DNA of 64,000 bases from NCBI GenBank assembly GCA_047284725.1, contig JBJBEO010000001.1, positions 1,112,203-1,176,202 on the forward strand. Direction: 5' to 3'. Source of the DNA: Synechococcus sp. GTDB taxonomy: Bacteria; Cyanobacteriota; Cyanobacteriia; PCC-6307; Cyanobiaceae. The position numbers and the translations under genes were made by a program. Below the pieces are notes generated by a model that saw only the letters and a program-made list of their open reading frames with translations, was not told the DNA's origin and did not search any database. Shown here in pieces: positions 3,500-48,706 of this stretch (its first letter is position 1; each line of letters starts with the position of its first letter).

Positions 3500-4459
3500 A
3501 TGGCGTCAAAACATCGCCAGAAGCATGGGCGTAAAGACAAAGCCCAATCCAAGAAATCTGCTGCTGAAACACTGCCGGATGCGGTGCTGTCGGCCCTTCA
3601 TGGCAGTGAACAGGACATTCAGCTCCCATCTGAACTGCTCGACGATCTGATCGAAGGGGGGTCGCGAAAGGCAGAACGCCTGAACAAGAAGCTCTATGAG
3701 TCTGAGCTGGAACGGCTGCAGACCGATCTCGTGAAAATGCAGTACTGGGTGAAAGCCACAGGCTTCCGCATGATTGTGTTGTTTGAAGGACGGGATGCTG
3801 CCGGAAAGGGAGGAACGATCAAGCGCCTCACCGAACCGATGAACCCCCGCGGATGTCGTGTAGTGGCACTTGGCACCCCTTCCGATCAGCAAAAAAGTCA
3901 GTGGTACTTCCAGCGCTACGTGGAGCACTTTCCCAGTGCGGGCGAAATCGTGGTGTTTGATCGCAGTTGGTACAACCGCGCTGGAGTGGAGCGTGTGATG
4001 GGCTTTTGCACTGAAGCTCAGGTGGAGCATTTTCTTGAGGATTGCCCGCGTTTTGAGCAAATGCTGGTGAACAGTGGAATCCTGCTGTTGAAGTATTGGT
4101 TCTCTGTCAGTGATGTGGAGCAGGAAGCTCGCTTTCAGTCGCGGATTGACGACCCCACGCGGCGGTGGAAGCTCAGCCCGATGGATCTGGAGGCAAGAAA
4201 CCGTTGGGTGGAGTTCTCCAAGGCAAAAGATGCGATGTTTGCCCGAACGAATATTCCAGAAGCACCCTGGTTCACGGTTGAAGCGGATGACAAACGTAGG
4301 GCCCGGTTGAATTGCCTTCGCCATGTCCTGAGCAAAGTGCCCTGGGAAGACATGACTCCACCGGCGATTCAACTGCCCGAGCGTCCTCAACAAGGTGATT
4401 ACACTCGCCCGCCCATCAATGAGCAGTTTTTTGTGCCAAACGCCTATCCCTACAGTTGA
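3500..4459 (+). CDS. ppk2: polyphosphate kinase 2
   Basis: FEGRDAAGKGG, FDRSWYNR, WKLSPMD motifs. Confidence 0.95.
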   Translation: MASKHRQKHGRKDKAQSKKSAAETLPDAVLSALHGSEQDIQLPSELLDDLIEGGSRKAERLNKKLYESELERLQTDLVKMQYWVKATGFRMIVLFEGRDAAGKGGTIKRLTEPMNPRGCRVVALGTPSDQQKSQWYFQRYVEHFPSAGEIVVFDRSWYNRAGVERVMGFCTEAQVEHFLEDCPRFEQMLVNSGILLLKYWFSVSDVEQEARFQSRIDDPTRRWKLSPMDLEARNRWVEFSKAKDAMFARTNIPEAPWFTVEADDKRRARLNCLRHVLSKVPWEDMTPPAIQLPERPQQGDYTRPPINEQFFVPNAYPYS

Positions 4460-4525
4460 GATCTACAGCAGGTTCACACCCCATCGATGAATCACTGACT
4501 GGAATCGTTGTGAGGCGATGCATCA

Positions 4526-4897
4526 TCACCGCGTACCTCGGCATTGGTGGCATTGTGAGATTTTGTCTTTGTGGCCATCGGGAAGGCTGAGCAGATAGGG
4601 ATCAACATCGAACTCGTAGCCGCATGCGCAAGAAACATGATATTTCAGCTTTTTGGATTTCTTGAGCTGCTTAATCAAGGTGATTTTTCCATAGACCTGT
4701 CCCGGCTTGAACCGCTCAAGTTTGGTTCTTCCTCCTTCTGACTTTTTGGCTGCAATTTTTTTGAGGGCGTTACGAACGGATACCTCACTGCCTTTACCAA
4801 TGATTTTTGGTATTTGTGTCACTGATCTGCCCTCATTGATGTAGAGGTGCTTGATTGCCTCGAGCTCACTTGATGTGAACCCTGATTTGCTCCCCAT
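4526..4897 (-). CDS. basic hypothetical protein, HTH-like N-terminus plus CxC...CxxC motif
   Basis: 123-aa Lys-rich ORF; SCACG and CHQC. Confidence 0.7.
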   Translation of the reverse strand: MGSKSGFTSSELEAIKHLYINEGRSVTQIPKIIGKGSEVSVRNALKKIAAKKSEGGRTKLERFKPGQVYGKITLIKQLKKSKKLKYHVSCACGYEFDVDPYLLSLPDGHKDKISQCHQCRGTR

Positions 4898-5283
4898 GGA
4901 ACTTCACGGCTGCCAGGTCTGCCGACAGTTTAAATCAGGATCAATGGTGATGACCAGTGATAAGAAAGTAGCCGTTGCGCCAGGATGACATCATGCGAAT
5001 GATGATTGTCTTCGAGCTTGATCGTTCGTTCATTGGCTGTGGTTTAGCTGTGCAGCTGAGCAAACCAAAGTCCCGCAAGTTGCCAACTTGACCATAGAAA
5101 GATGGCAAGAAAAAGCCAATTCATCCATGCAGGGCGTTGCTTGTTGTCAAGCATCAGTCGTTATTCCGTAGATCTTTGATTCTCATCTGCTTCACCCGTG
5201 TTCGGTGCAGATTCTCCCAATGCTGTCATCATTTGTACGATCAAGCTGAAAGTGCTTGTATTACTGTCCTCCAGAGGCTTAAT

Positions 5284-7104
5284 TCAGAGTTTTGCTGCAT
5301 AGTCAGGGTCAAAGGGACTCAATTTATGTTTGCCGAGCATGCATGTTAATCCTTGTTTCTCGTAATTATTATCTTTAGATAAATAATAATCTGGAGGCAT
5401 TGGCAAGCCTAGTCCAAATCCTTGTGCATATTGAAAGCCGAGTGTTTGCATGTGTTTTTGATGGTCTTGTTTTTCAATGCCCTCTACGACAACAATCATG
5501 TTGATTTTTTCTGCGATCATTGCCATCGCCTGAAGGACCGCAGAGTGCTTGTCATGTTTCAATGAATCTTGAAACAGCTTCTGGTCAATTTTAAAGCCTT
5601 GGATCGGTAGTTCCAGTAGTTGGGTGAAGCCTGTAAAACCGCTACCAAAATCATCCAGTAAAATTGTCATTCCTGCTTCAACCAGTTGGAGGACCTCTGA
5701 TCGAAGGTGATCGAGATTATCAATAAAGCCTGTTTCTGTTATTTCAATGATAATTTGCTTGTTGTTGATCCATCTCGCATTTTGGATTTTTTGAAGGATT
5801 AATCGGGCCACTCCATTCTTTTTCAGCGTTAGTGCGCTTAGGTTGATGGAAAGTCTGTCCTTGCTCCTCACAATGTTCTCAATGCCATTGCAGGCAAGCA
5901 CGGATTCAAGTACAATCTGGTCAATTTCGTTGATGTTGTTCGATGATTCGAAGTACTTGACAAAGTCTAGAGGTGGCAAAAGCATGCCATTGTTAGACAA
6001 TGGTCGCATCAGAACTTCGTATCCGATGCATTGCTCGAGTCTTAGGTCAAAGATTGGTTGTAAGTGAAAAGGGATTTTGCGCGTTTCTATGATTTTTTTA
6101 GCGCTCTCTCGGATTAAATGATTTTTTGCACGGGTGATTTCAAGGTCTTTGCCGTAGTAGTGAAGATGATCAGCATTTTGTTTGGCTTGGTACATCGCAT
6201 TATCAGCTTGGCTAAGCAATTCTTTGGGAGAATTTGCGTTGTAGCCTAAGCTCGCACCGGCGCTTGATCTGACTCGAATCGAAATTTCTTGATCGCCACG
6301 GTTCACTTTGATTGGTATTTCAGTCAGCTTGGTGAGCCTCTTGATGATTTTGTCGATCGATGATTTTGCATTCTTGGTATTGATTTTGCTGGCAACGATG
6401 ACAAACTCATCGCCAGACAATCTTGAGACGACATCGCATTGTCGTGTTGCTTCAATTAGTTTGTCTGAGAATTGTTTAAGCACTTTGTCGCCAACTTCAT
6501 GGCCAAAGCCGTCATTGATCTCTTTGAATTTATTGAGGTCTAAAAAGATTAAGCCAATGGAGTCTTTTTTGCCCTGTGCGAACTCTTTTTCTAGATGCCT
6601 CGTCAGGCCTCGTCTGTTCAATAAGCCTGTCAGAGAACATGTGTCGAGGCTGTCTTGGAGGTTGTCGATCACAATGAGGTGATCAGTATTTTTCAAAACA
6701 ACAATTTTCGTATTTAATTCAACATTGATTTTTTTAATCTCGCATTCGTAGTGGCTTAATCCTGCCTCACTCTTAAGGGTTATGTTGAAGTTTCCTTCAG
6801 ATAGTTTGAGTAGTGGCTCAAGATTGGACTCGTCCTTGTCTTTCGACAACCGTCTATCTGGTTGATCGTGGTGCGCATTGATGAGTGGAGCCAAGCAGGT
6901 TGATATGTTTTGGCCAAGCATGAATAAGCGAGACTTCATCACCATTTTTTCAAACGAGTTATTGCACCACTCCAAGTTGTTATTTTCGTCGAAAATAATA
7001 ATTGGTTCGTCGACCTTGGACAAGGCAGATTCAAGCCTCGCCAGGGACCTGCGTAGCGGCTCAATCAGATTGTCTGTGCTTATTTCAAGGCTATCCGGTG
7101 TCAT
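5284..7104 (-). CDS. PAS-GGDEF-EAL diguanylate cyclase/phosphodiesterase
   Basis: LTGLLNRR, DLNKFKEIND, RQCD I-site, SGDEF; EVL, EITE, DDFGSG, EGIE, QGF; AT-rich. Confidence 0.93.
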   Translation of the reverse strand: MTPDSLEISTDNLIEPLRRSLARLESALSKVDEPIIIFDENNNLEWCNNSFEKMVMKSRLFMLGQNISTCLAPLINAHHDQPDRRLSKDKDESNLEPLLKLSEGNFNITLKSEAGLSHYECEIKKINVELNTKIVVLKNTDHLIVIDNLQDSLDTCSLTGLLNRRGLTRHLEKEFAQGKKDSIGLIFLDLNKFKEINDGFGHEVGDKVLKQFSDKLIEATRQCDVVSRLSGDEFVIVASKINTKNAKSSIDKIIKRLTKLTEIPIKVNRGDQEISIRVRSSAGASLGYNANSPKELLSQADNAMYQAKQNADHLHYYGKDLEITRAKNHLIRESAKKIIETRKIPFHLQPIFDLRLEQCIGYEVLMRPLSNNGMLLPPLDFVKYFESSNNINEIDQIVLESVLACNGIENIVRSKDRLSINLSALTLKKNGVARLILQKIQNARWINNKQIIIEITETGFIDNLDHLRSEVLQLVEAGMTILLDDFGSGFTGFTQLLELPIQGFKIDQKLFQDSLKHDKHSAVLQAMAMIAEKINMIVVVEGIEKQDHQKHMQTLGFQYAQGFGLGLPMPPDYYLSKDNNYEKQGLTCMLGKHKLSPFDPDYAAKL

Positions 7105-7466
7105 GGTATTGGTTTCAAATGAGCTCCGAAGTACCAGTCCTCACCTTGCTTTTCAGCAACAATATAGTGCTCTGAGTTGATTTCTTCTCCGTCGGCCCGT
7201 AGGGCTTTTAGATTTAATGGGTGGCCGACAACCTGCGAATTCTCTGGAGAGCTGAAATTTGAGAAGGCTAGGTGGTGTGACATCCTGAAGACTTCAGGCA
7301 GCACGAGGTCCAATGTTTTTCCTTTGATGTTAGTGATGTCCCAGCCAAAGCACGTCTTAAACTCCTTGTTGACATCAATAATCAGACCTTGATTGTTGAC
7401 CATGATGAATGGTGTGTTCTCGTTCGACATGCCTTTGAGCACTCCTCCTTCGGGATAATTGCTCAT
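7101..7466 (-). CDS. stand-alone PAS domain protein
   Basis: PAS-like IIDVNKEF...FGW...LVLPE...H...RADGEEI; stop overlaps GGDEF-EAL start. Confidence 0.85.
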   Translation of the reverse strand: MSNYPEGGVLKGMSNENTPFIMVNNQGLIIDVNKEFKTCFGWDITNIKGKTLDLVLPEVFRMSHHLAFSNFSSPENSQVVGHPLNLKALRADGEEINSEHYIVAEKQGEDWYFGAHLKPIP

Positions 7467-7782
7467 TGGGTCTAAGGCCTCACAGCTTCTCTATTCAAAC
7501 CATAGGCGAAACGATTGGTGATGGGTTTATCGATTTTTTGAAACTTAATGACTTGCGATAGTGCCCGTTCGCTTTAATTTATCTTTAATATCATATCGTT
7601 GATATGACTGCCTTGGGTAAGACTGCGCTCTGTTGGGTGTCGTTGTTAGGGGTTTGACGCTTGTCAGTCTTGGCTTGAGAGGCCATCCGTGTTGATGCGG
7701 AGCGGGTCGCTCGGTCCTTGGCTCTGATCACGCCCGAGATGCCATTAGATCAGACCGCTTCCAGTTAGGGTCTCGCCCCGCT

Positions 7783-7938
7783 CTAGGGCTGGATACGGAC
7801 TTCTGCTGGGCTTGTGGATGAGCTTCCCGTGCTTCTGCGCGGATCGTTTCCATTGCGCCAGGGTGTGAACAGCAGAAAATTGCCCATCACCAATCCTGTG
7901 GTGACGATCACTGCAAACAGCTGTTCCAGGCGGTTCAC
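7783..7938 (-). CDS. small membrane-anchored hypothetical protein
   Basis: GTG start, single hydrophobic segment LFAVIVTTGLVMGNFLLF. Confidence 0.4.
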   Translation of the reverse strand: MNRLEQLFAVIVTTGLVMGNFLLFTPWRNGNDPRRSTGSSSTSPAEVRIQP

Positions 7939-8302
7939 GTTGGCCCTGCACACAGCTCCACACAGCTGATCATGCTGTGTCAAAGCCCGACTCTGCTTGG
8001 GAAGCAGACGATTTGTTGAGGTGTTGGCACCAGGCAGTGGGCTGGCTAGGTGTGGATTATTCCACGTTTTGCAGTGGTGTCATGTCTGTGATCAAGCCGG
8101 AGGATCAGCGTCCGAAATTGGAGCGGATGGCCAGGCACTGGCCGCGGAACCTCCAGGAACACTGGCACGTGGATGAAAGGCGACGTTTGAATCTCCCCGC
8201 AACACTGCTGTCTGAGTCGATCAGACTTGGCTCAGGAAGCAGGGTTGCGACCAGATCGTTCGGTAAGCGCAAGTGCTATCTGGTCCCTCCCTGTTGAGTA
8301 GA

Positions 8303-37951: not shown

Positions 37952-38293
37952 ATGCTGGTTGAACTTCGACAGGCCGGAAGTGAGCGCCTGGTGGATCGCA
38001 TGGAGCTTGATGAGGCACCTCACCCAGGTCGATGGTTTGAGCACGGACAGCACTCCTATTTCGTGCTGCAACGACGTCATCGCTACGCCCTGCGATCCGG
38101 TCGCTATCAACTCGCGTCCGTTGTGTTGTCGGTGAAGCAGCAACGCCAACCCCTGGATGCGCGTCGTTTCCGCCACGGCTGGGTGATTGGCGATCCAAGC
38201 TGTCGCTTCAATGCGCTCAGTCCACTGCTGCGATGTGCCGTGTTGCCTGATGGACCCTGTGATTCCTGTCTGCAGCGTGAAGCGCGCTCTTAG
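37952..38293 (+). CDS. hypothetical protein, Cys-rich C-terminus
   Basis: IGDPSCRFNA...RCAVLPDGPC. Confidence 0.8.
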   Translation: MLVELRQAGSERLVDRMELDEAPHPGRWFEHGQHSYFVLQRRHRYALRSGRYQLASVVLSVKQQRQPLDARRFRHGWVIGDPSCRFNALSPLLRCAVLPDGPCDSCLQREARS

Positions 38294-38296
38294 GCC

Positions 38297-38791
38297 ATGA
38301 ACGAGCCATGGCCAGATCTCAGATGGCATTCCTGCCGACTGCTGCGCGGCCATGGTGTTGCGTCAGGCCATGCCAATCGTGACCCTCTCCGCCCCGATTC
38401 GCCCTATCCGGCTGGCACCATCACGATGCAAGCCCCCTTGTTCGCGGAGAGGGGGCTCGATCTTTCCCCTTACTGGCCCGGAACTCTCAACGTGTCCTTT
38501 GCACCCAAGAGCGTGGTGTTGAGAGACGCAGATCATTGCTTTCCCCATCTTCGTTGGACACCCTTGCATCCACCTGAAACCTTTTCGTTCTGGCGCGTGG
38601 TGTTGCGGCGAATCAGGTCATCGCAGGAGCTGAGTGGCTTGATTTATTTCCCCCACCCAGAGACCAAGCAGCGCCACTGGCAACCTCAGTCTGTGGTGGA
38701 AGTTCTCGCCCCATGGATCGCTTATCTTGATCCTCAGGAACCTCTGGCGCTGGGCGTCAGTCAACGTCAATTTTCGTTGCTGGATGCTTGA
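38297..38791 (+). CDS. hypothetical protein
   Basis: GHGVASG, SPYPAGTI, HPPETFSF, PHPETK. Confidence 0.8.
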   Translation: MNEPWPDLRWHSCRLLRGHGVASGHANRDPLRPDSPYPAGTITMQAPLFAERGLDLSPYWPGTLNVSFAPKSVVLRDADHCFPHLRWTPLHPPETFSFWRVVLRRIRSSQELSGLIYFPHPETKQRHWQPQSVVEVLAPWIAYLDPQEPLALGVSQRQFSLLDA

Positions 38792-39300
38792 TCGTCCAGT
38801 TCAAGATTGAGGGCCTGGGCTGTGGACTTGTCAAGTTGTGTGCTGATCCATTCAGATGCATCCAGCCGAGCGATCGCATGGATTTAAATATTGATTGGAA
38901 GCCGTTGGGGCGAGGAGGTCATGACTCCAGATTGGATTGGTGTGGCTGCGTTGTTGTTGATTATCGCCACAATCACTGCTGTTGGTTACCTGGAAGGGCA
39001 TTCAATGCTCTGACGCCTCGAAGCAGTGCTGTCAGCTCGTAGTCCTTGAATCAGTTTGTCTTGCAACCTGACCAGCAAGCGTTCCATTCTTGATGCAGGT
39101 GTTTTGTGGTCAGAGAGTTGTCAAAACCACGCCACGTCTTGTCTGCCTGTTTGTCCGTTGCCATCAGTGACACCAGCAAGTCAATGGCTTCGTCGGCTGT
39201 GACGCGTCGCCCTGAGGGTGTTTTTGGCAGCAATTGAGCGCCTCTTTGCGCCAACACGGCCAATCGAATCGCCACAATGGGGGCCGATCAACGGAGCACC

Positions 39301-39964
39301 ATGGTCAGAAGCCCTGCTCCCTGGTTGGCCCTTGCCGCCCTGTCTGCAGCAGTGACCGGGTGTTCTGTCTTAACAGGGCGTGTTCCAAGTGTTTGCAAGG
39401 CGTTTCCTCTTTGCTCGCCTGCTGTGTCGACGTCGACGCCGATTAGCAAGGCAAGCCGCGAAGCAGCTGCAGGAGGCCACCCATCTCCGCAGCTACCGCA
39501 GAGCCGCGGAGGTCCTGGACCGTGAACTGATCCAACTCAGTGAAGGTCCTCTTTCTCCAGGCGAGAAGCGTGAGGTCGACCGACTGACGTCGCTCAACCG
39601 AACAGCGCAGATCGTCGTGCTGGAGGAAACCAAGGCCCAGGCCAGCCTGGATCGGGCCAGCGACGCCATCACTGCGGCATCCAGGCTGAGGGGTGCAGGC
39701 CAACAGAGGCAGCTGGCGCAGGCCAAGGATCTCCTGGTGCAAATCCATGGCCGCAGTTTTGCCGATGAGCGATCACGGCGGCTGATGCAGGAACTGGAAC
39801 GCCTGATGGCTCAATCCGAACTTGAGGTTCCGAAGGACCCCAAACAGGAGCCAAGCAAGGCTGGGGATCCTGTGGCTCCACCGCAACCAGCCTTGCCTCC
39901 ACCAAGTCAAGGCGATTTGCAGGGCGGTCAGCCAGACGGTTGGTGGGACAAGCCCCTCTTCTGA
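39301..39964 (+). pseudogene. frameshifted lipoprotein gene
   Basis: lipobox VTGC in one frame, helical body in the +1 frame from about 39450. Confidence 0.55.
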
Positions 39965-40025
39965 CGCCACGTTGAATCCAGGAAGGCCTGGCTTAATCTC
40001 TGGGTCCGATGGATTCGTGGGGCTT

Positions 40026-40595
40026 GTGCGTCAGAAAGCTGGTGTGATTGCAGGTGTCGCGCTATCAGCAGCTGCCTCTTGGCTCTCTGTGGAGCCGGTT
40101 CTGGCCGGAGCCAGCGCACGGGGGTTTGTCTGCGGTGTCGCCAATGGTGCTCCAGCCACCAACGCCCTGAAAGCTGATGGCACGCAGATCCCTGTGATCC
40201 GCTGGACCAGCAGCACGTTCACTGCTGCCGGCTGGGGTCCGCAGCGTCGCTGCGAGGAGGTGTCCGAACGGTTCGACACCTATCTCAAGCAGGGACGTCT
40301 GGCCTACATCACCACAGGACGGATGAATCGACTGCCTGTGATCTGTACAGCAGCGAGCAAGCGTGGCCCCTGCGATGGCTTGCTCTACACCCTGAAGCCT
40401 GGTCAGAACGCCACCGCCACGTTGAAGGACTTGTTGCAGATTCGGGTCAAGGCACGGGGACCACTGAATGAGACCAGTGGCAGGCTCTACGTGAGTCTCG
40501 ATGAGCTGATGACCGCGTCCGAGGCCAGCACCGATGCTGTGATGGCACCCGAGCTCTCAGACACGTCGACTCAGCCCACGACTCCCCTCTGGTGA
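40026..40595 (+). CDS. COP23 domain secreted protein
   Basis: FVCG, VIRW, PQRRCEEVSERF, TTGRMN..PVIC, LLYTL. Confidence 0.85.
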   Translation: MRQKAGVIAGVALSAAASWLSVEPVLAGASARGFVCGVANGAPATNALKADGTQIPVIRWTSSTFTAAGWGPQRRCEEVSERFDTYLKQGRLAYITTGRMNRLPVICTAASKRGPCDGLLYTLKPGQNATATLKDLLQIRVKARGPLNETSGRLYVSLDELMTASEASTDAVMAPELSDTSTQPTTPLW

Positions 40596-40906
40596 GGCTG
40601 TGCCGGAAGGTCCGCCGTGTGGCCAAAACAACGTTCGTGATCCCTTCACAGTTGTCTTTCTTTCATTCAGGAGGACGCGTCAGTCGTCGTTGTGATTGCT
40701 CGGTTCGTGGCCATGGGGTTCCAACACTTTTCGCCAGACCCGGCGAGGGTGCTTACCGCAAGGCATGGACTTGATGCGTGATTGTGTGATTCGATCAACG
40801 ACTGGTCTGATTGGATTTGCGCAGCTTCATCAGGTGATGCAGCTTTTGTTCGGCAGAGCTGTCGCTGCATTTCAGGGCTATGTTTTGAATCCTGTTGGCA
40901 TTCTCA

Positions 40907-41332
40907 ATGCCTGAATCGTCTTGCTTGAGCTGGCCTCAGTTGTTCAAAAGGGCAGCAACGAAACCGTTTGACTATCGGTCAACCTCATCAAGGGCTGAGT
41001 ACTGGGTCTTTGTGATTTCCATGGCAGTCGTGCAGGCCATTGTGTCCATGATTGTCACCATCGGTACGGCGTTCTATGTCTATGCCTCCACGGCCCCTGA
41101 AAGCATGGGTTCCGAATCGTCTGGGCTGATTTCGGTGGGAGTCCTTTTGTCGGTTGTAAGTGTGCTTAATTTTCTGATAAGCATCTATATCATTCTTGCT
41201 ACATCTGCGCTTGCCAACCGACGACTGAGAGACCTCCAAATGAATACCTGGTTGACGCCCTTGTTCCTGATTCCTTGCCTGAATTTTATCCTTGCGCTTG
41301 TTTACTTCACGAGGAAAAGGGCTTTGGCATAA
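40907..41332 (+). CDS. DUF805 membrane protein
   Basis: SSRAEYW, RRLRD, LIPCLN. Confidence 0.85.
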   Translation: MPESSCLSWPQLFKRAATKPFDYRSTSSRAEYWVFVISMAVVQAIVSMIVTIGTAFYVYASTAPESMGSESSGLISVGVLLSVVSVLNFLISIYIILATSALANRRLRDLQMNTWLTPLFLIPCLNFILALVYFTRKRALA

Positions 41333-41457
41333 CCGCTTGAATCGGCATCTCGGACTGCTGGAGTGCTGATTGAGCGACATATTCAGAAGCCTGGCACGAA
41401 TGGACGACTTTGAATTCAGGTTCTGCGCGATCGTCGTGGGTCGCTTACAGTTGTCAT

Positions 41458-41501
41458 GAGCGAAGCGAGTGGAAGCTATTCGGTTGATCCAATTGTTCTG
41501 C
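41458..41501 (-). repeat. truncated attC (first arm only)
   Basis: minus strand GCAGAAC-AATTGGATCAACCGAATAGCTTCCACTCGCTTCGCTC just after the stop; no returning arm. Confidence 0.5.
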
Positions 41502-41508
41502 TACACCA

Positions 41509-41970
41509 TTAGTTGGAATGACCTTGATTGCCGTACCAACCTCCTGTGTCACCCCCAATCCAAACTTTATGTTTGAATTGGGGGAAATATTCATGACAAA
41601 GACTTAGGATGTTATCGTCTTTAGTTATGTTGTCGCCCTTTTTGTAACCTTTTGGGTAAAAGATTCTATCAATATATTTGCCTTGTACTCTTATCTGGCC
41701 GATGACGTAAATTCCATTGCCTACCCCGTATACGGAGCCTTCTTTTTGCTTTGTGTATACTGCTACATATCCACCGTCAGCTTTTGTGTAATGGTTAATT
41801 GTAGGCAATATTCGTCTTTCGAGGCCTGGTAAGGGATAATTGATTGCTATATTTTCCTTTACGTAAACTTTAAAATCACGTGGCAAAAGATTGCTTGTCG
41901 AGATTCGAGGATTACCAGTGCAGCCTAGTGTAGTGAGGCTAAGTGCAATGAAGAGTGTCAATTTTTTCAT
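41509..41970 (-). CDS. cassette-borne lipoprotein of unknown function
   Basis: MKKLTLFIALSLTTLGC lipobox; AT-rich. Confidence 0.8.
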   Translation of the reverse strand: MKKLTLFIALSLTTLGCTGNPRISTSNLLPRDFKVYVKENIAINYPLPGLERRILPTINHYTKADGGYVAVYTKQKEGSVYGVGNGIYVIGQIRVQGKYIDRIFYPKGYKKGDNITKDDNILSLCHEYFPQFKHKVWIGGDTGGWYGNQGHSN

Positions 41971-42101
41971 ATTTTTTCTTTCTATTTTGTTGAAAGCTGC
42001 CCCGCAGTGGCAGGCAGAGAGTTTGTAGTGGCGAAGGAAGAAGATTATTGTTGGTGGTCTGCCTACTTGAAGGACTTGTTCGATGCCCATAAAGGCTAGG
42101 G

Positions 42102-42419
42102 CTAGATCTCGCCATCGACTAAGAAGAGGCGCCTCTGAAACCCGCCTCGCGTTTCGGCCTTTTGCCTTCGCACGACCTCAAGCTCCTCCAAGGTATGGCC
42201 CTTGGCCACGCAGAGAGCGCGGATGACTTCAAGGGTGTCTGCCAACTCCTGAATGTCGCCACTACTCTCGGAAACCTCGGTGACCTCTTCGTGGAGTTTT
42301 GCAATGAGTTGTGCCACGTATTCGTCGTCGCGCAACTCCCGGACGGTGCATGCCTTTCCGGCAGCTTCCATGACCTCAGGGATTCGGTCGCGGACAAGCT
42401 TGTTGTAGGTCTTTCGCAT
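42102..42419 (-). CDS. MazG-like all-alpha NTP pyrophosphohydrolase
   Basis: YNKLVRDRIP, EEVTE...ELAD, RGGF. Confidence 0.9.
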   Translation of the reverse strand: MRKTYNKLVRDRIPEVMEAAGKACTVRELRDDEYVAQLIAKLHEEVTEVSESSGDIQELADTLEVIRALCVAKGHTLEELEVVRRQKAETRGGFQRRLFLVDGEI

Positions 42420-42427
42420 CTAGAGGC

Positions 42428-43462
42428 TTACAGCAGGGAGTTGGCGACAAATGAGTTCGCTGGTCGCCAGCGACTTGGTATCGCGTTGATAGCGAGCTGG
42501 TCGCATTGCTGAAGGAAGCTCGCGCGTTTCTGCTTGGTGGCACCGGTCTGCGCAATCAGCGTCTCGCGGAGTGGGTGGTGGCTGTCTATGAGCCAGTTGT
42601 TCCTCACGTTCAGGCGCTCAAGGTACTCGATGTGTGGGATGAGGTCGAATTTTCCACCTGGGCCACGGTTGCACTCTGTGCAGGCCAGAACGAGGTTCCA
42701 TACACCGTCGATATTCAAGCCACAAAACGGCTCGGCATGGTCGAGTCGCTTGGGGAAAAAGTGGTCGACATCGGCGTCCAACGTCTCACTACGGTCGATG
42801 GTGATTGGTTGATGGCAATAGAAACATGTGCCTTTCTGATACCCGTTTAAAGCATCGCGCACTCCGGCTATTGACACCCGACGAGTTGCGTCAGTCGCGA
42901 TGAAAAGCTCGCCAATCTCAATGTCTGTTCTTACTTCCAACACGCGCGAAGGCACTCCAAGGTTCCAGGCCGTCTCAACTAGACGCCATCGTGCTTCCGC
43001 CTCTAGCGCCAAGCTGTTGGCCTGCGTGTCCGCCATGAGTCGTCGAAACTCTTCAGTGAGCCGGATTCCTTTGGCTGTCGCACGCTCGTCGTGGAAGAAC
43101 CGAATTGGTACATCTGAAGAGCCGACGATGTGAAATGCATCGATGACATTGTTGAAGCCACGCCTGACGGTCTCCATGCGTAGTTGATCGGCTGAGAGTT
43201 CGCCGCGGTTGAAGTTGCGACAGGCGTCGAGAAACACGCTTGAGCGCGAGGTCGCTTGTCGATCCGCGGAATTGAGGTGTCGGGCGATCTCCCGAGCGAA
43301 AGGTACCGCGAGATCATCAAGGCGGACGAGGTCATCGGTTGCTGGGGCGAGCTCAACCAACGAGCGAGCGAGGGCAAACTTGTATGACGCGACGTTTCGA
43401 CCAAAAAGGACGATCGCCCGCCAGCAGGATGCGGGATTCGGCTTGCTCTCAATGAATGTCGT
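42428..43462 (-). CDS. HNH endonuclease (canonical start missing; ACG at 43462, first TTG at 43360)
   Basis: in-frame WRAIVLFGRNVASYKFALA upstream of the called start; CFYC, VDHFFP, WNLVLACTECN. Confidence 0.85.
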   Translation of the reverse strand, partial: TTFIESKPNPASCWRAIVLFGRNVASYKFALARSLVELAPATDDLVRLDDLAVPFAREIARHLNSADRQATSRSSVFLDACRNFNRGELSADQLRMETVRRGFNNVIDAFHIVGSSDVPIRFFHDERATAKGIRLTEEFRRLMADTQANSLALEAEARWRLVETAWNLGVPSRVLEVRTDIEIGELFIATDATRRVSIAGVRDALNGYQKGTCFYCHQPITIDRSETLDADVDHFFPKRLDHAEPFCGLNIDGVWNLVLACTECNRGPGGKFDLIPHIEYLERLNVRNNWLIDSHHPLRETLIAQTGATKQKRASFLQQCDQLAINAIPSRWRPANSFVANSLL

Positions 43463-43515
43463 GGTCGAGGCGCTTCGGATGCACCCCGATTCTACTTAAG
43501 CCGCTTTCTCGATGC

Positions 43516-43596
43516 TTCTAACGCCCAAGCTGTGCGGCGCAAACGAAGCGCAGCGTAGTTTGCGTCCGAACGAGCGGAACGAGCGCCTTGTTAGCT
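43516..43596 (-). repeat. attC site
   Basis: minus strand AGCTAAC...GTTAGAA with inner IR GCAAACTACGC/GCTTCGTTTGC; contains the upstream gene's stop. Confidence 0.88.
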
Positions 43597-44438
43597 ATTT
43601 TTGAATACATGATTTCGATGGTGCTCCATATAACCCATTAATCTGCTTGGCACCTTCCTCAATTTGAGATTGCCAGCCAATCCAAGTTTTCAATGTCATC
43701 TTGTGATAGTTGAGGGGAAATCATTGCTATACCGGCTTCATCGAATGTGATTAGTCCCAAATCAAACAAGTGATCTAATGTGGGTTGCAATAACAGCCCA
43801 TTCATTGGGTCAAGACGCTCTTGATTGGATGAATCTCTCCACGGTTTGATATGCGAGGCTCGAACCACAGAGAGATTGCCTAACCCAGTAACTGAGCAAC
43901 TTCCCCATACTTCAACTACACCATCCCTGAACAAGCCCTGCCCGATGCGACTCTTTACGATTGATTTTTTTTCAGTTTGATCTAGCGATTTGAATTCATC
44001 CTTGTGCGCTTCGATATCGTCAAACATGTCTGGACGTTGACTTTTGTTCCCGACCGAAAACACAAATTGACTGGGTGACGAGCTAAGGCGGCGATGTTCT
44101 TTTAGATGAATCTGTCCGCAATACACAAATGGCGTATGATGAATGTCTCGATAAAAGAGGTGTATTTCATCATTCACAGACTCTGCATTGATCACTCTGT
44201 TGTCTGATGAATGCTTTTCTTCGCCTTCTCAGTGAAGCAGCTCGCCGTCTAAATAATCATTGTATTGAGTTAGTGCTTCTTGTTTTTGTTTTGTGACAAA
44301 CAGGATGATGTATTTAGTTCCTGATGGCGTTACAACGCCCCTGGAAATAGCCTGAAACCCTTTGTAGCCCCAAATATCAGCCAGGGATGGCCGCTCATAT
44401 TCTTGCCCAATTTTCAGTTTTTCAAGGCTGACTGGCAC
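43591..44438 (-). pseudogene. N-terminal domain + HNH endonuclease cassette gene, disrupted
   Basis: in-frame TGA at 44229-44231; RIGQGLFR, ASHIKPW, NGLLL..LDHLFDLGLITF; frameshift near 43688 restores YMEHHRNHVF and a stop inside the attC. Confidence 0.85.
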
Positions 44439-44454
44439 GGTATTTCCTTTTGAT

Positions 44455-44612
44455 GGCTAACAGTGTTTCGGCGGACAGTAGAAGTTGCTAATAGTTGATT
44501 TTTTGCTGCATAAGCTGGCAATGGCAGCTTTCCCCCAAGATCAACACCCCAGCTCTAGCAACAATTTTAGCGGATTCCACTCCTCGCATGGATTGTTATG
44601 CGGACCGCAAAA
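44455..44612 (-). repeat. 158-bp attI-like element, copy B
   Basis: ends in GTTAGCC just before a cassette; end-to-end similarity to 45215-45372. Confidence 0.65.
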
Positions 44613-44707
44613 GCTCTTCAACGCTTGGTTGCTTAGCTGAAGGCCATAATCCTTATGGAGACCATTTCAAGTCATTCATATGGGGCGATTGTTGGTCGCT
44701 TAATGGT

Positions 44708-44809
44708 GCCTAGCGCCCCGTTTAGCGGCTTTTTATAGTTGGCTAAAATAACGAACGCAATGAGGGAAGCCAACTATTAAAAGTCCCAGCCTGCAACGCC
44801 TTGTTATAT
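44708..44809 (-). repeat. attC site (R' degenerate: GCTAGGC)
   Basis: minus strand ATATAAC...; inner IR ATAGTTGGCT/AGCCAACTAT; overlaps upstream stop. Confidence 0.85.
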
Positions 44810-45208
44810 GTGTTGAACACCATTCCATCCATTTCGGTTTATGATTTTAAACTTTGAATCGTCTTTGCTGTAGCAACTAGACTTTAATGATGAAAAGTCT
44901 AGGTTGTTTCGCGGAACCTCAAAGTATTCAAAAACCTTGTTGCCATCGGTAGCAACCAATAAAGTAATACCATCTAGTGTGTGAATTTTACTTTTTGTCT
45001 CGATGTCGAACTTAAAGCCTATTAGATCTTCCGCGCTTTGGTTGTTTGAATAAGGTGTAATTATGCAAACTTGTTTCCAGTTCCCTCTTATCTCTATTGA
45101 TAAGTCGACAAACTCTTTTGAATGGTCAAAAGTTCGTTCTGGAGCTTCGCCCACCTTGGAGCAAGAAATCAATAATATCACTAAAATAACAGTCAGACAC
45201 TTATTCAT
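44804..45208 (-). CDS. first cassette: putative lipoprotein
   Basis: MNKCLTVILVILLISC lipobox; AT-rich; between GTTATGT and an attC. Confidence 0.8.
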   Translation of the reverse strand: MNKCLTVILVILLISCSKVGEAPERTFDHSKEFVDLSIEIRGNWKQVCIITPYSNNQSAEDLIGFKFDIETKSKIHTLDGITLLVATDGNKVFEYFEVPRNNLDFSSLKSSCYSKDDSKFKIINRNGWNGVQHI

Positions 45209-45214
45209 AAACAC

Positions 45215-45372
45215 ACATAACAGTCTTACGGCGGTCCGCACAAGCTGCCGCCAGGCAGCTTATGCGGCAAAAAAATCCGTTTGAATCACCTCTCAGGAAC
45301 CAATTACCTACTTTTAGCAAGACCACCGCACCCCATCCAAGCCCGGCTTGGTTTGTTACCAGGACCGCAAAA
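45215..45372 (-). repeat. 158-bp putative attI platform, copy A
   Basis: starts 11 bp after the intI stop and ends at G/TTATGT of the first cassette; contains hairpin 45236-45267. Confidence 0.65.
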
Positions 45373-45383
45373 CATCCTCGGGT

Positions 45384-46358
45384 TCAGAGCAAGTCCGCGG
45401 GACTGCGGACGACTGATGGACCGCGATTCAGCACATGGGTGTAGATCATCGTGGTCTTCACATCGCTGTGACCCAGCAGCTCTTGAATCATGCGGATGTC
45501 GGCTCCCTGCTCCAGCAGGTGTGTGGCAAACGAATGGCGGAAGGTGTGGCAGGTGGCTGGCTTGCTGATCCCCGCCGCCTGCACGGCAGCACGCACGGCC
45601 CGCTGTACCAGGCTCGGATCCAGGTGGTGTCTCCCCTCCAGTCTCTGCCGGGGACTCCGCCAACGGCGGCATTAGGGAAACAGCCATTGCCAGGCCCATT
45701 CCCTCGCCGCATTTCGGTATTTCTTCTCCAGGGCATGGGGGAGCTCCACCGCACCCCAACCCGCTGCCAGATCGGCCTGGTGCACACTCCTCACGTGCTG
45801 CAGGTGCCGTTGCAAGGGCTCCACCAGGCTCGAGGGAAGCACGGTGCGCCGGTCCTTGCCTCCTTTGCCGCAGCGCACCGTGATGCAGCACTTCTCCAGG
45901 TCCACATCCTTGATCCGCAGCCTTAGCGCCTCCATCAGCCTCAGTGCACTTCCATAGAGAAGCTGGGCCACCAGGGCCTCGGCTCCGCCCAGATGGCCAA
46001 GCACGGCCTTTACTTCATCCACCGTCATCACCACGGGAAGGCGCGCCCGTCTGCGGGCTCGGATCACACCCTCCAGGTTCCCCACATCACCACCCAGCAC
46101 CGTGCGATAGAGAAACAGCAAGGCCGCCAGCGCTTGGTTCTGCGTGGAGGCACTCACTCTCTCCTCTGTCGCCAGATGACTCAGGAACGCATTGATCTCT
46201 GCCTCCCCCATCTCACGCGGATGACGCATCCGTTGAAAGCGCAGGAATCTCCGCAGCCAGTGCTCATAGCTCGACACTGTCCGGCGTGCGTAGTGCCTCA
46301 CCTGCAGCTCTTCCCGGTAGCGCTGGATCAGGCCCGGCGGCTGGTTCGGGTTGGCCAT
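45384..46358 (-). pseudogene. intI: integron integrase with single in-frame TAA (45672-45674)
   Basis: SASTQNQAL, LYGSALRLMEA, GKGGKDR, IntI insert [49 protein letters not shown]; both ORFs in the same frame. Confidence 0.95.
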
Positions 46359-46510
46359 CGATGGGGTGTCTGCGCAAAGGGAGTGTTCCCCCACTTCGAC
46401 AATCATCAGCAACAGCTGTTCACAACATGGATTGGCGATACCTCCCTGCGCCCCGCCTGATACGCCTTGCTAGCGATTGGGCGGCTCCGAGAACCGTTTT
46501 TGCCGTCGAA

Positions 46511-46905
46511 CATTGCCATTCCCATTCACGCTCGGCTGGGGTATTGGCGACCTAACGCATCGGCAATCAGGACCTGCCCCCAACCGGCCTTTCGATCACG
46601 CTGGTGAAACTTGCGAACATCACTTAGATGGCGTGCCAGTGCTGGGAACATGCTTTGTGGCAAGAGCGTCAGTCGATCCTTCCCCCCTTTGCCATCGCGC
46701 ACGCAGAGCTCTCGCCGCTCGATGCTGATGTCTTTGACGCGCAGGCTTAAGGCCTCCATCAAGCGCAACGCACTGCCGTTCAGCAATCCCACCACCAGCC
46801 TTGGTGAACCCTGCAGTGTCGCGTTCGAGCCCGGATGACGGAATCCAACACCAAGGGTTTGCCGAGCAGTTCGCGATCGAGAAACAGCACTGCAACTGGA
46901 TTGGG
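46511..46905 (-). pseudogene. intI: degraded second integron-integrase fragment
   Basis: LFLDRELL..VIRAR / GSALRLMEALSLRVKD, GKGGKDR, GWGQV, REWEWQ across several frames. Confidence 0.85.
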
Positions 46906-47079
46906 GCCTCCGTTGGCTGTCATCGTCTGGGCCGCTGGCCAGGAGCGGATTGCTGTTGACCGATGCAACGCTCCTCCTCGTCGGCCATTGCCTAGAGCGC
47001 AGCAACGTCTTCTCGGTCCACAACCACGTGCGAGACGGTTACGGTCTCGTCGTGAGGTCCGGGGTTTTAGGGAATTGCC

Positions 47080-47298
47080 ATGGCACTGAGTGAGGAAGAA
47101 AGACTCAGGACGCGCCATCGTCTGCTGGAGTTCCTCAAATTTCGGGTGCTTGCCGCAGAGGATCAGTTTTTTGATGACCGTTCCCCCGATCAGCGTCGGC
47201 AATGGTTGAAGGGTCTCTTCCCTCAGGCCCTCTGCCTCTCGGATGAAGACCTGGACCAGGTCTGGCAGCAGGCGTACGCCCTCTACGGCTGTCACTGA
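47080..47298 (+). CDS. small hypothetical protein
   Basis: [13 protein letters not shown] helix; 72 aa. Confidence 0.7.
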
Positions 47299-47368
47299 AC
47301 GTCTGCGGCGGCAATGGCGTGGTAGGTCAGCCGTTTCATGCCCGGCTTCTAGGGTGAAGGGTCTTCGC

Positions 47369-48706
47369 ATGCTGGCCATCACCGCTTCGTTGTCTCCCTC
47401 CGTTGTGTCTGGACAGAGCTTTGGGGATTTGGGCCTCAGTGCGCCCCTGCTCAGGGCTTTGGAGGAGAAGGGGTATCAGGCACCCTCACCCATCCAACAG
47501 CAGGCCATTCCGGTGGTTCTGCGCGGTCGGGACCTGATGGCTGCAGCCCAGACCGGCACTGGAAAAACCGCAGGCTTCACCCTGCCGATGTTGGAGCGGT
47601 TGAGCCACGGCGCTCGCCCCGGGCGTGGTCAGATCCGTGCCCTGGTGCTGACCCCCACCCGTGAGCTGGCGGCCCAGGTTCTCGACAATGTGCGTGACTA
47701 CAGCCGGCATCTGCGCCTTCGCAGCGAGGTGGTGTTTGGCGGGGTGAAGATCAACCCGCAGATCCAGCGTCTGCAGCAGGGGATTGATGTGCTCGTGGCT
47801 ACTCCCGGGCGTCTGCTCGACCTGCATCAGCAGGGGGCCGTTCGCTTTGACCGTGTGGAATTCCTCGTGCTCGATGAAGCCGATCGCATGCTCGATATGG
47901 GTTTCATTCACGACATCCGGAAGGTGCTGTCGCGTTTGCCCGACCGTCGCCAGAACCTTCTCTTCTCAGCCACCTTCAGCCCATCGATTCGCAAACTGGC
48001 CACCGGGCTGCTGCAGGACCCGGAGCAGATCCAGATCACACCGCCGAACCAGACCGCACGCTCCGTGGAACAGGTGGTGCATCCCTGTGACATGAAGCGC
48101 AAACCCGACTTGTTGAGCCACCTGATCCGTTCGAACGACTGGCGGCAGGTGCTGGTGTTCTCTCGCACGAAACACGGCGCCAACCGTGTGGCCGAGAAGC
48201 TCACCAAGGAAGGGCTTGAAGCCGCTGCCATCCACGGCAACAAAAGCCAGGGAGCCCGTACGCGTGCCCTCCAGGGATTCAAGGATGGCCGGGTTCGCGT
48301 GCTGGTCGCCACGGATATTGCGGCCCGTGGCATCGACATTCAGCAACTTCCCCATGTGGTCAATCTTGACCTGCCCAACGTGGCCGAAGATTATGTGCAT
48401 CGGATCGGCCGGACCGGACGGGCTGGCGAATGTGGTCATGCCATTTCCCTTGTGGCCGCGGAAGAAGCCCTGCTGCTCAAGGCGATTGAACGCACTACGA
48501 ACGAGCGTCTCGAAAGGGTCCTGGTCCCTGGGTTTGAACCGACGGTTCTCGAGGCTCCCCCCCTTGATCTCAGTGGTGGCCGCGGTCGTCGTGCACCACG
48601 TGGAGGCAGAGGCGGCGGCGGCCGCCATGATCGTGGCGCCAGTGCCCATTCCCGCTCCCCATCGACCGGCAGGCCGAAACGATCGGGTCGCCCTCCACAA
48701 CGCTGA
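47369..48706 (+). CDS. DEAD-box RNA helicase (RhlE-like)
   Basis: [32 protein letters not shown]-rich tail. Confidence 0.95.

Follow-up and report, generated by a model that had tools for sequence, protein, structure and literature searches.

A probable attI of cyanobial reverse integrons and its likely carriage into cassette arrays in a gene-less unit

The attachment site attI has been left unidentified for most integrons and lies beyond the search of IntegronFinder (PMC4889954). attI1 is 65 bp long, lies upstream of a divergent intI, and combines an L box, a 5-bp spacer and a G|TT R box with two upstream R-like direct repeats (PMC12901181, PMC3146285). It has AAC three bases ahead of the crossover, and the cores of its direct repeats are GTTACGC and GTTATGG (PMC3146285). 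Most environmental attI sites are without repeats (PMC3146285). Reverse integrons, in which the integrase is inverted, have been described from Treponema, Chlorobium, Blastopirellula and Synechococcus (PMC3607928, PMC4889954, bioRxiv 427781), and an integron is credited with one attI only (PMC3607928). The accessible text of PMC3607928, PMC4889954 and bioRxiv 427781 yielded no account of attI anatomy in cyanobacterial reverse integrons.

Sequence derived from attI has also been found at internal cassette boundaries, in the delta-attI-type cassettes of class 1 and 2 mobile integrons (PMC12901181). In these the attC of an ORF cassette has been lost to an attI fragment, mostly of 14-18 nt, with one of 244 nt and one full attI1 duplication, and attC-X-attI and attI-X-attI arrangements recombine with IntI1 (PMC12901181). 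Insertion at chance genomic attG sites has been described together with SALINs and CALINs, whose cassettes have no integrase nearby, and attI donors hardly enter genomes whereas attC donors do (bioRxiv 10.1101/2022.09.11.507474). Here we describe a chromosomal reverse integron of Synechococcus sp. in which a 158-bp element occurs twice, as copy A directly behind intI and as copy B within the array. We hold it probable that both represent one conserved element of about 160 bp that follows intI and is most likely its attI, and that B belongs to a 253-bp gene-less unit which IntI likely moves from array to array and which likely provides an extra insertion site.

The window, the whole stretch of 64,000 nt that was analysed (GCA_047284725.1, contig JBJBEO010000001.1; G000:C1:1112203-1176202 in our numbering), carries on its minus strand intI, copy A, cassette 1 with a 102-bp attC, a leader, copy B and an HNH cassette with an 81-bp attC, in that order (Table 1). 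The N-terminal part of the integrase scored 290 bits against TIGR02249 (cut-off 265). In the assembly intI is interrupted by TAA at codon 229 (window 45674). The base there differs in run X1 and in three metagenome runs, where the stop is absent, which points to an assembly error or a strain-specific change. X1 differs from the assembly at 15 positions over 3.2 kb, none of which touches the TGA (44231-44229) that splits the HNH cassette ORF. Both cassettes have concordant ends: cassette 1 starts with GTTATGTGT, in agreement with its own end core CACATATAAC, and the HNH cassette starts with GTTAGCCA, in agreement with TAGCTAAC. The ORF of cassette 1 had no match in a Pfam and NCBIfam search, and an Rfam scan of 38000-48000 returned nothing at E<=1.

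Table 1. Features of the integron on the window; attI, box and crossover assignments are predictions.
Feature	Position in window	Strand	Remarks
intI, integron integrase gene	45384..46358	-	324 codons; reverse layout, transcription towards array
Copy A, putative extended attI directly 3' of intI stop	45215..45373 (158-bp element 45372-45215)	-	
Copy A, parts	distal 19-bp box 45373-45355; proximal box from 45244; L box 45233-45227	-	
Copy A, simple site	crossover G 45221; R box 45221-45215	-	
Micro-inversion of middle R-like box in A, 25 bp	45254..45278	+	
Cassette 1	44715..45220	-	134-aa ORF 45208-44804
attC of cassette 1, 102 bp	44708..44809	-	long central hairpin, bottom strand
Gene-less leader	44614..44713	-	102 nt, from crossover G 44714 to first base of distal box
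Copy B, putative full extended attI within array	44455..44613 (158-bp element 44612-44455)	-	
Copy B, boxes	44613 (-152), 44562 (-101), 44514 (-53), 44484 (-23)	-	
Copy B, simple site	L box 44473-44467; crossover G 44461	-	
HNH-nuclease cassette (PF13391), inserted at B	43523..44460	-	
attC of HNH cassette, 81 bp	43516..43596	-	

The array continues on the same strand over 41509-43515, with a cassette carrying a 310-aa HNH-like ORF and a 105-aa ORF, followed by a 193-aa ORF; the attC sites of this part look decayed by eye. A second intI fragment (about 46540-46815, minus strand; residues 123-214, 55% identical) lies just 5' of intI in the same orientation, and an intI remnant is likewise found upstream of an intact intI at locus L008. 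A second low-GC island (42-50% GC) occupies window positions 4000-8000.

The preliminary description had proposed, from these letters alone, that A and B are diverged copies of a single element. Its coordinates and the length of 158 bp for each are borne out, as are the 28 of 37 identities over the intI-proximal ends and the 18 of 23 over the cassette-proximal stretch, both read off the alignment. Ungapped, the copies share 74 of 158 positions. Their homology holds against shuffled controls, with a global alignment score of 106 versus 33.8 +/- 8.8 and none of 1000 dinucleotide shuffles as high; A against the reverse complement of B scored 27, a value reached by 532 of 1000 shuffles. The central motif does lie in opposite orientation in the two copies. 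A 25-bp segment of A corresponds to the B motif in reverse complement, the inversion is in A only, and A was alone among the elements scanned in having the motif reversed. With the segment flipped back, A scored 65.2 instead of 47.5 bits on a profile for which neither A nor B had been used, and with the motif reversed in no other element scanned this makes A the derived copy.

The inversion is not an assembly artefact, given that X1 holds the whole stretch, inversion included, within one contig with no joint, that a 389-nt contig of metagenome X4 with 5 differences spans A and carries the inversion, and that X3 contains a near relative with the uninverted form. The inverted -54 box of A pairs with the proximal box as a local hairpin. 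A switch by inversion of the core, for which a check of the reads had been proposed, found no backing in contigs from X1, X3, X4 and X5, which have no joint, contigs being a form of data that drops rare variants. The inversion is a lesion private to the allele of A, with no sign of a switch.

Two further copies were found in the same genome, C (C1:1754463-1754620), which lies away from any intI in a restriction-modification island and ahead of a KAP NTPase cassette, and D (C1:381946-382100), behind a decayed intI. An integrase scan of genome contigs gave 79 loci. The preliminary description had reasoned that an element always directly after intI would speak for attI and one repeated after many genes for attC, and the outcome favours the former: one copy lies directly behind the intI stop in all 21 cyanobial loci with a profile match (20 of which formed the training set of the profile; L078 was without a match), its G|TT being 163-174 bases past the stop, and the element is not repeated within the up to 8 kb of flank at these 21 loci. 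A and D share this position at the array head, whereas B and C are not adjacent to intI.

A sequence-only model of the element, with 19 candidates scored per genome, found at least 53 copies in at least 30 of 150 family genomes. By hand count, 26 of the 53 lie behind an intact or decayed intI end (eight of them in the training set), 2 behind a leader, and 25 are other or unclassified; of the best 20 of the 53, 17 stand immediately behind an intI 3' end, be it intact or decayed. intI itself is present in 54 of 151 genomes, many family intI genes being without a model match, and genomes G017 and G018 have different sequences downstream of intI. All fetched loci together, a set biased towards intI, contain 81 distinct copies, of which 43 follow an intI end and 10 a leader like that ahead of B; the other 28 have neither of these upstream, so solo copies must also arise by further routes. 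At L091:7768-7870 (G029) only the proximal 30 bp or so of the element is present, followed by cassette-like sequence, and no intI was seen in the 15-18 kb examined there.

Among 59 full copies, the simple site comprises an L box with the consensus CGCCGAA, a 5-bp spacer and the G|TT crossover. Conservation is highest over these parts and falls off beyond G|TT, and the column frequencies display the L box, 4-5-bp spacer and G|TTRRRY R box by which attI sites are recognised. R-like heptamers in direct orientation stand near -23, -54, -102 and -152; the last three are about 50 bp apart and so probably on the same helix face. The distal and proximal boxes repeat each other in direct orientation and change together between two subfamilies, the proximal 17-mer matching the distal zone at 12.4 in its own copy, 12.2 in the same subfamily, 8.9 in the other subfamily and 8.1 after shuffling (n=47). 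These subfamilies track two IntI C-terminal types across 20 loci, kin among which are not independent. The element has the parts listed above for attI1, including the AAC three bases ahead of the crossover, whereas it is about 160 bp long, has four boxes and lies downstream of the intI stop. Its box, CTTATGC or GTTATGC, resembles the attI1 repeat cores, and by this analogy the R-like boxes may be accessory IntI binding sites like DR1 and DR2.

Cassettes join this site precisely at G|TT, as expected of an attI. The six bases past GTT match the core of the next attC at 4.2 of 6 positions versus 2.7 in shuffled controls (n=29 copies for which a following attC could be detected; none of 5000 as high), and cassette start and end core agree at 8/10 positions for B and 9/10 for C. 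A similar repeat-plus-GTT arrangement beat all 30 shuffles at 10 of 50 non-cyanobacterial integrase loci, six of which (L018, L020, L025, L041, L047, L067) have a repeat distance of 136-157 bases ending before G|TT, so the long layout may extend beyond the cyanobial family. One of these six integrases comes from a record titled as an archaeal MAG. The position next to intI, the L/R geometry, the boxes, the matching cassette cores and the absence of an attC hairpin together make the element most likely the attI of a cyanobial reverse-integron clade, not an attC. The earlier view of it as the recombination platform of reverse integrons is to that extent upheld, as a site of attI type.

B does not follow cassette 1 directly. 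The 102-bp attC ahead of it ends at a mutated R' core, G|CTAGGC (window 44714), which makes B the 3' part of a 253-bp unit. Such a unit consists of an att crossover, a gene-less leader of 102 bp and a full attI-type element, and measures 250-258 bp, about 254, from crossover to crossover. Eight complete units were found, two each in G000, G017, G212 and L177 (three genomes and one metagenome contig); only 3 of 46 genus genomes thus supply full units, and kin are not independent. Six units that were compared are 57-89% identical. The unit starts at an attC crossover in six of the eight and at an attI crossover in two, and the cassette behind it differs in all eight, with a matching end core in six and none found for two. 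Homologous leaders precede the internal copies in G017, G212, copy C and metagenome contigs L177 and L179. All four ORF cassettes of G017 have an internal attI unit in front, one being a second attI type with another leader.

One complete unit, that of C, lies in an integrase-free defence island (G000:C1:1750037-1757000; L086, L094) with type I restriction-modification and Mrr-like genes, identified by eye. The island ends in a decayed second-type attI, 21/26 identical to that of G017, then a full leader and attI, and the KAP NTPase cassette with its attC. Four more units are truncated or decayed: the first of G017, the second copy on G212 C11, one on G212 C31 and the third of L177, whose start is a GTT within the leader. 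Strong matches to the leader model came from 3 of the 46 genomes of the genus and, among 149 genomes from the rest of the family, from one further genus. The latter, G079 (L197, G079:C12), is an exception, in that leader positions 1-82 stand behind an attC with no attI after them. The fragment that cuts this leader at position 82 looks psbA-like, and the cut is possibly a misassembly.

Apart from these units, the second-type attI of G017 (L089:13800-14055, minus strand) follows an attC with an unrelated leader of 93 nt, and at L135 and L136 a common leader runs from a GTT ahead of attI-like copies in G149 and G186. The L177 array with its three leader and attI units also holds, by eye, HicAB-like and MazEF-like toxin-antitoxin cassettes (L177:2030-2770 and 4227-4990).

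The leader itself has no profile match in any intI end that was fetched, no real structure (fold of -0.21 kcal/mol) and, by eye on the alignment, no conserved ORF. No match was found for leader plus B in plasmids and phages by blastn, or for the leader pattern in viral contigs. Weak matches in G004, G117 and G152 stand in other sequence with no element behind and were taken as chance. Two other origins were tried and rejected: the leader is not the 3' flank of an empty integron, as the final attCs in the window, G017, C and G212 C41 have no leader behind them, and a non-coding cassette beginning at the GTTATTT at 44752 fails as that GTT falls inside the 102-bp attC.

B is only 60% identical to A, and in a tree of 28 attI bodies (163 columns, inversion of A included) the leader-borne bodies do not form one clade (AU p=1.15e-6), three of them grouping with A and not B. 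B is therefore not a local duplicate, and either the leader joined with attI bodies on at least two occasions or the bodies have been exchanged. A is probably the resident attI, and B probably came from elsewhere. The preliminary description had offered a mobile attI or a merger of two integrons as the source of the second copy; the first is strengthened by finding B in an attI-bearing unit, and the second, as worded there, is not borne out, since B is preceded by a conserved leader that is not intI and by no intI remnant.

How such a unit would move can be drawn from integrase chemistry. Recombination of attC with attC by IntI excises a circle, which inserts through its attC. A leader and attI lying between an att site and an ORF cassette would leave with that cassette, as a circle of leader, attI, ORF and attC, and this composite could enter a new place via its attC as any cassette does. 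New cassettes would then enter at the internal G|TT, so that cargo turns over and the unit is kept. Excision by attC x attI would alternatively free leader and attI alone, which could insert into array attCs. On these data either circle may be the usual traveller. Re-entry of the composite through attC would account for units directly behind an attI and agrees with the preference for attC over attI donors in genome entry (bioRxiv 10.1101/2022.09.11.507474), and the composite is mildly favoured by the fact that no tandem leader units were seen. The mutated crossover (G|CT) upstream of B means that this copy may be immobile now.

Other readings account for part of these observations. It is very improbable that the element is an unusual host-type attC, which would make leader and element an ordinary ORF-less cassette and intI itself cassette-like, as had been raised at the outset. 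A and B do have a TAAC...GTT span of 147 bp and the attC cores RYYYAAC ... GTTRRRY, the distal core GCRTAAC agrees with the unit start GTTAGGC at 6/7 positions, and the units occupy places expected of a cassette. Yet only 22 of the 59 full copies have the distal TAAC, which forms the right arm of a fixed dyad that also occurs behind intI. No consensus pair exists over 27 aligned copies, and neither strand of A or B folds into an end-to-end hairpin, local hairpins aside, so that the bottom-strand pairing of R''/R' and L''/L' is missing from A, B and the 27-copy alignment. The true attCs of these arrays are long stems, clear in six sites of G017, G212 and L177 and least complete in the two window attCs, in a folding set that leaves out one mis-picked G212 C11 site (2610 nt) and the attC of C. 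Each intI-led locus has a single copy, not one per ORF. Internal copies sit behind a true attC or attI plus leader instead of at the 3' end of each cassette ORF, and the element exceeds the attC range of 57-141 bp (PMC12901181). Two further comparisons carry no weight here: an L-box pairing score proved unreliable, at 0-10 on true attCs versus 1-6 on elements, and comparison of the element's distal core with its own R' (2.18 versus 2.25) was ill-suited, such cores belonging to different cassettes within an array.

If the element is an attI, the internal copies might still be passive relics of rare duplications or fusions of whole integrons, decaying and with neither mobility nor use. Many solo copies in the family do derive from decayed intI ends, the four incomplete units named above attest decay, and the upstream core of B is mutated; we nevertheless consider such an origin unlikely, as the leader gave no profile match in the fetched intI ends, keeps a length of 102 nt in five units of 57-89% identity, and begins at a crossover in all eight complete units, each with different cargo. 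In run X5, moreover, a B-like contig with 4 differences in 208 nt (98% identical) enters other sequence at the crossover of B. That the unit is kept chiefly as a promoter cassette, with the attI incidental, is scarcely credible, even though ORF-less cassettes can be promoters (bioRxiv 10.1101/427781), TTGAAA-N16-TAYGKA/T is conserved in 8 of 11 leaders, and every unit precedes an ORF. No sigma-70 consensus site occurs in 44400-45450, the candidate -10 of B reads TATGGC, and conservation is strongest at the L/R simple site. A promoter role is plausible as an added function of an attI-bearing unit. On a bolder reading, possible but rather doubtful, leader and attI would form a gene-less attI cassette that moves autonomously and brings its own promoter, a portable integron platform that IntI excises by attC x attI and inserts into array attCs and spent attIs, with donor and target roles reversed, thereby seeding new points of capture and expression in arrays and integrase-free defence islands.

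Delta-attI cassettes are the nearest described class to the leader and attI unit, which likewise places an attI-derived site at an internal cassette boundary. They belong to clinical mobile integrons, whereas the cyanobial unit is chromosomal, with a complete attI of about 160 bp, no ORF, a dedicated 102-nt leader and 57-89% identity across genomes. Neighbouring ORF cassettes keep their attC, and in none of the eight complete units has the attC of an ORF cassette been replaced by a truncated attI. The cassette at C has no integrase nearby, as in SALINs and CALINs, and unlike these it sits behind a full leader and attI, where an attG insertion would occupy a genomic site by chance. In the literature searched, which was mainly open-access, neither a cyanobacterial attI nor an ORF-less unit with a full-length attI was found described.

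For the probable attI of a reverse-integron clade there is now a profile to search with and a box anatomy that can be tested, and the inverted box of A offers a natural mutant of the site. Within chromosomal arrays, full attI copies likely travel as part of a conserved unit. Behind these sites, much of the cargo has matches to families with a link to phage defence (HNH, KAP NTPase, GmrSD, STAND NTPase). If the unit is active, an array would have several insertion points and position-dependent expression would be reset mid-array, and some integrase-free cassettes would be satellites of a distant integrase and not accidents at attG. Were the unit in addition an autonomous attI cassette, analogous units with other leaders (the second type of G017, L135/L136) would point to a general feature of reverse integrons and to a hidden source of CALINs and SALINs.
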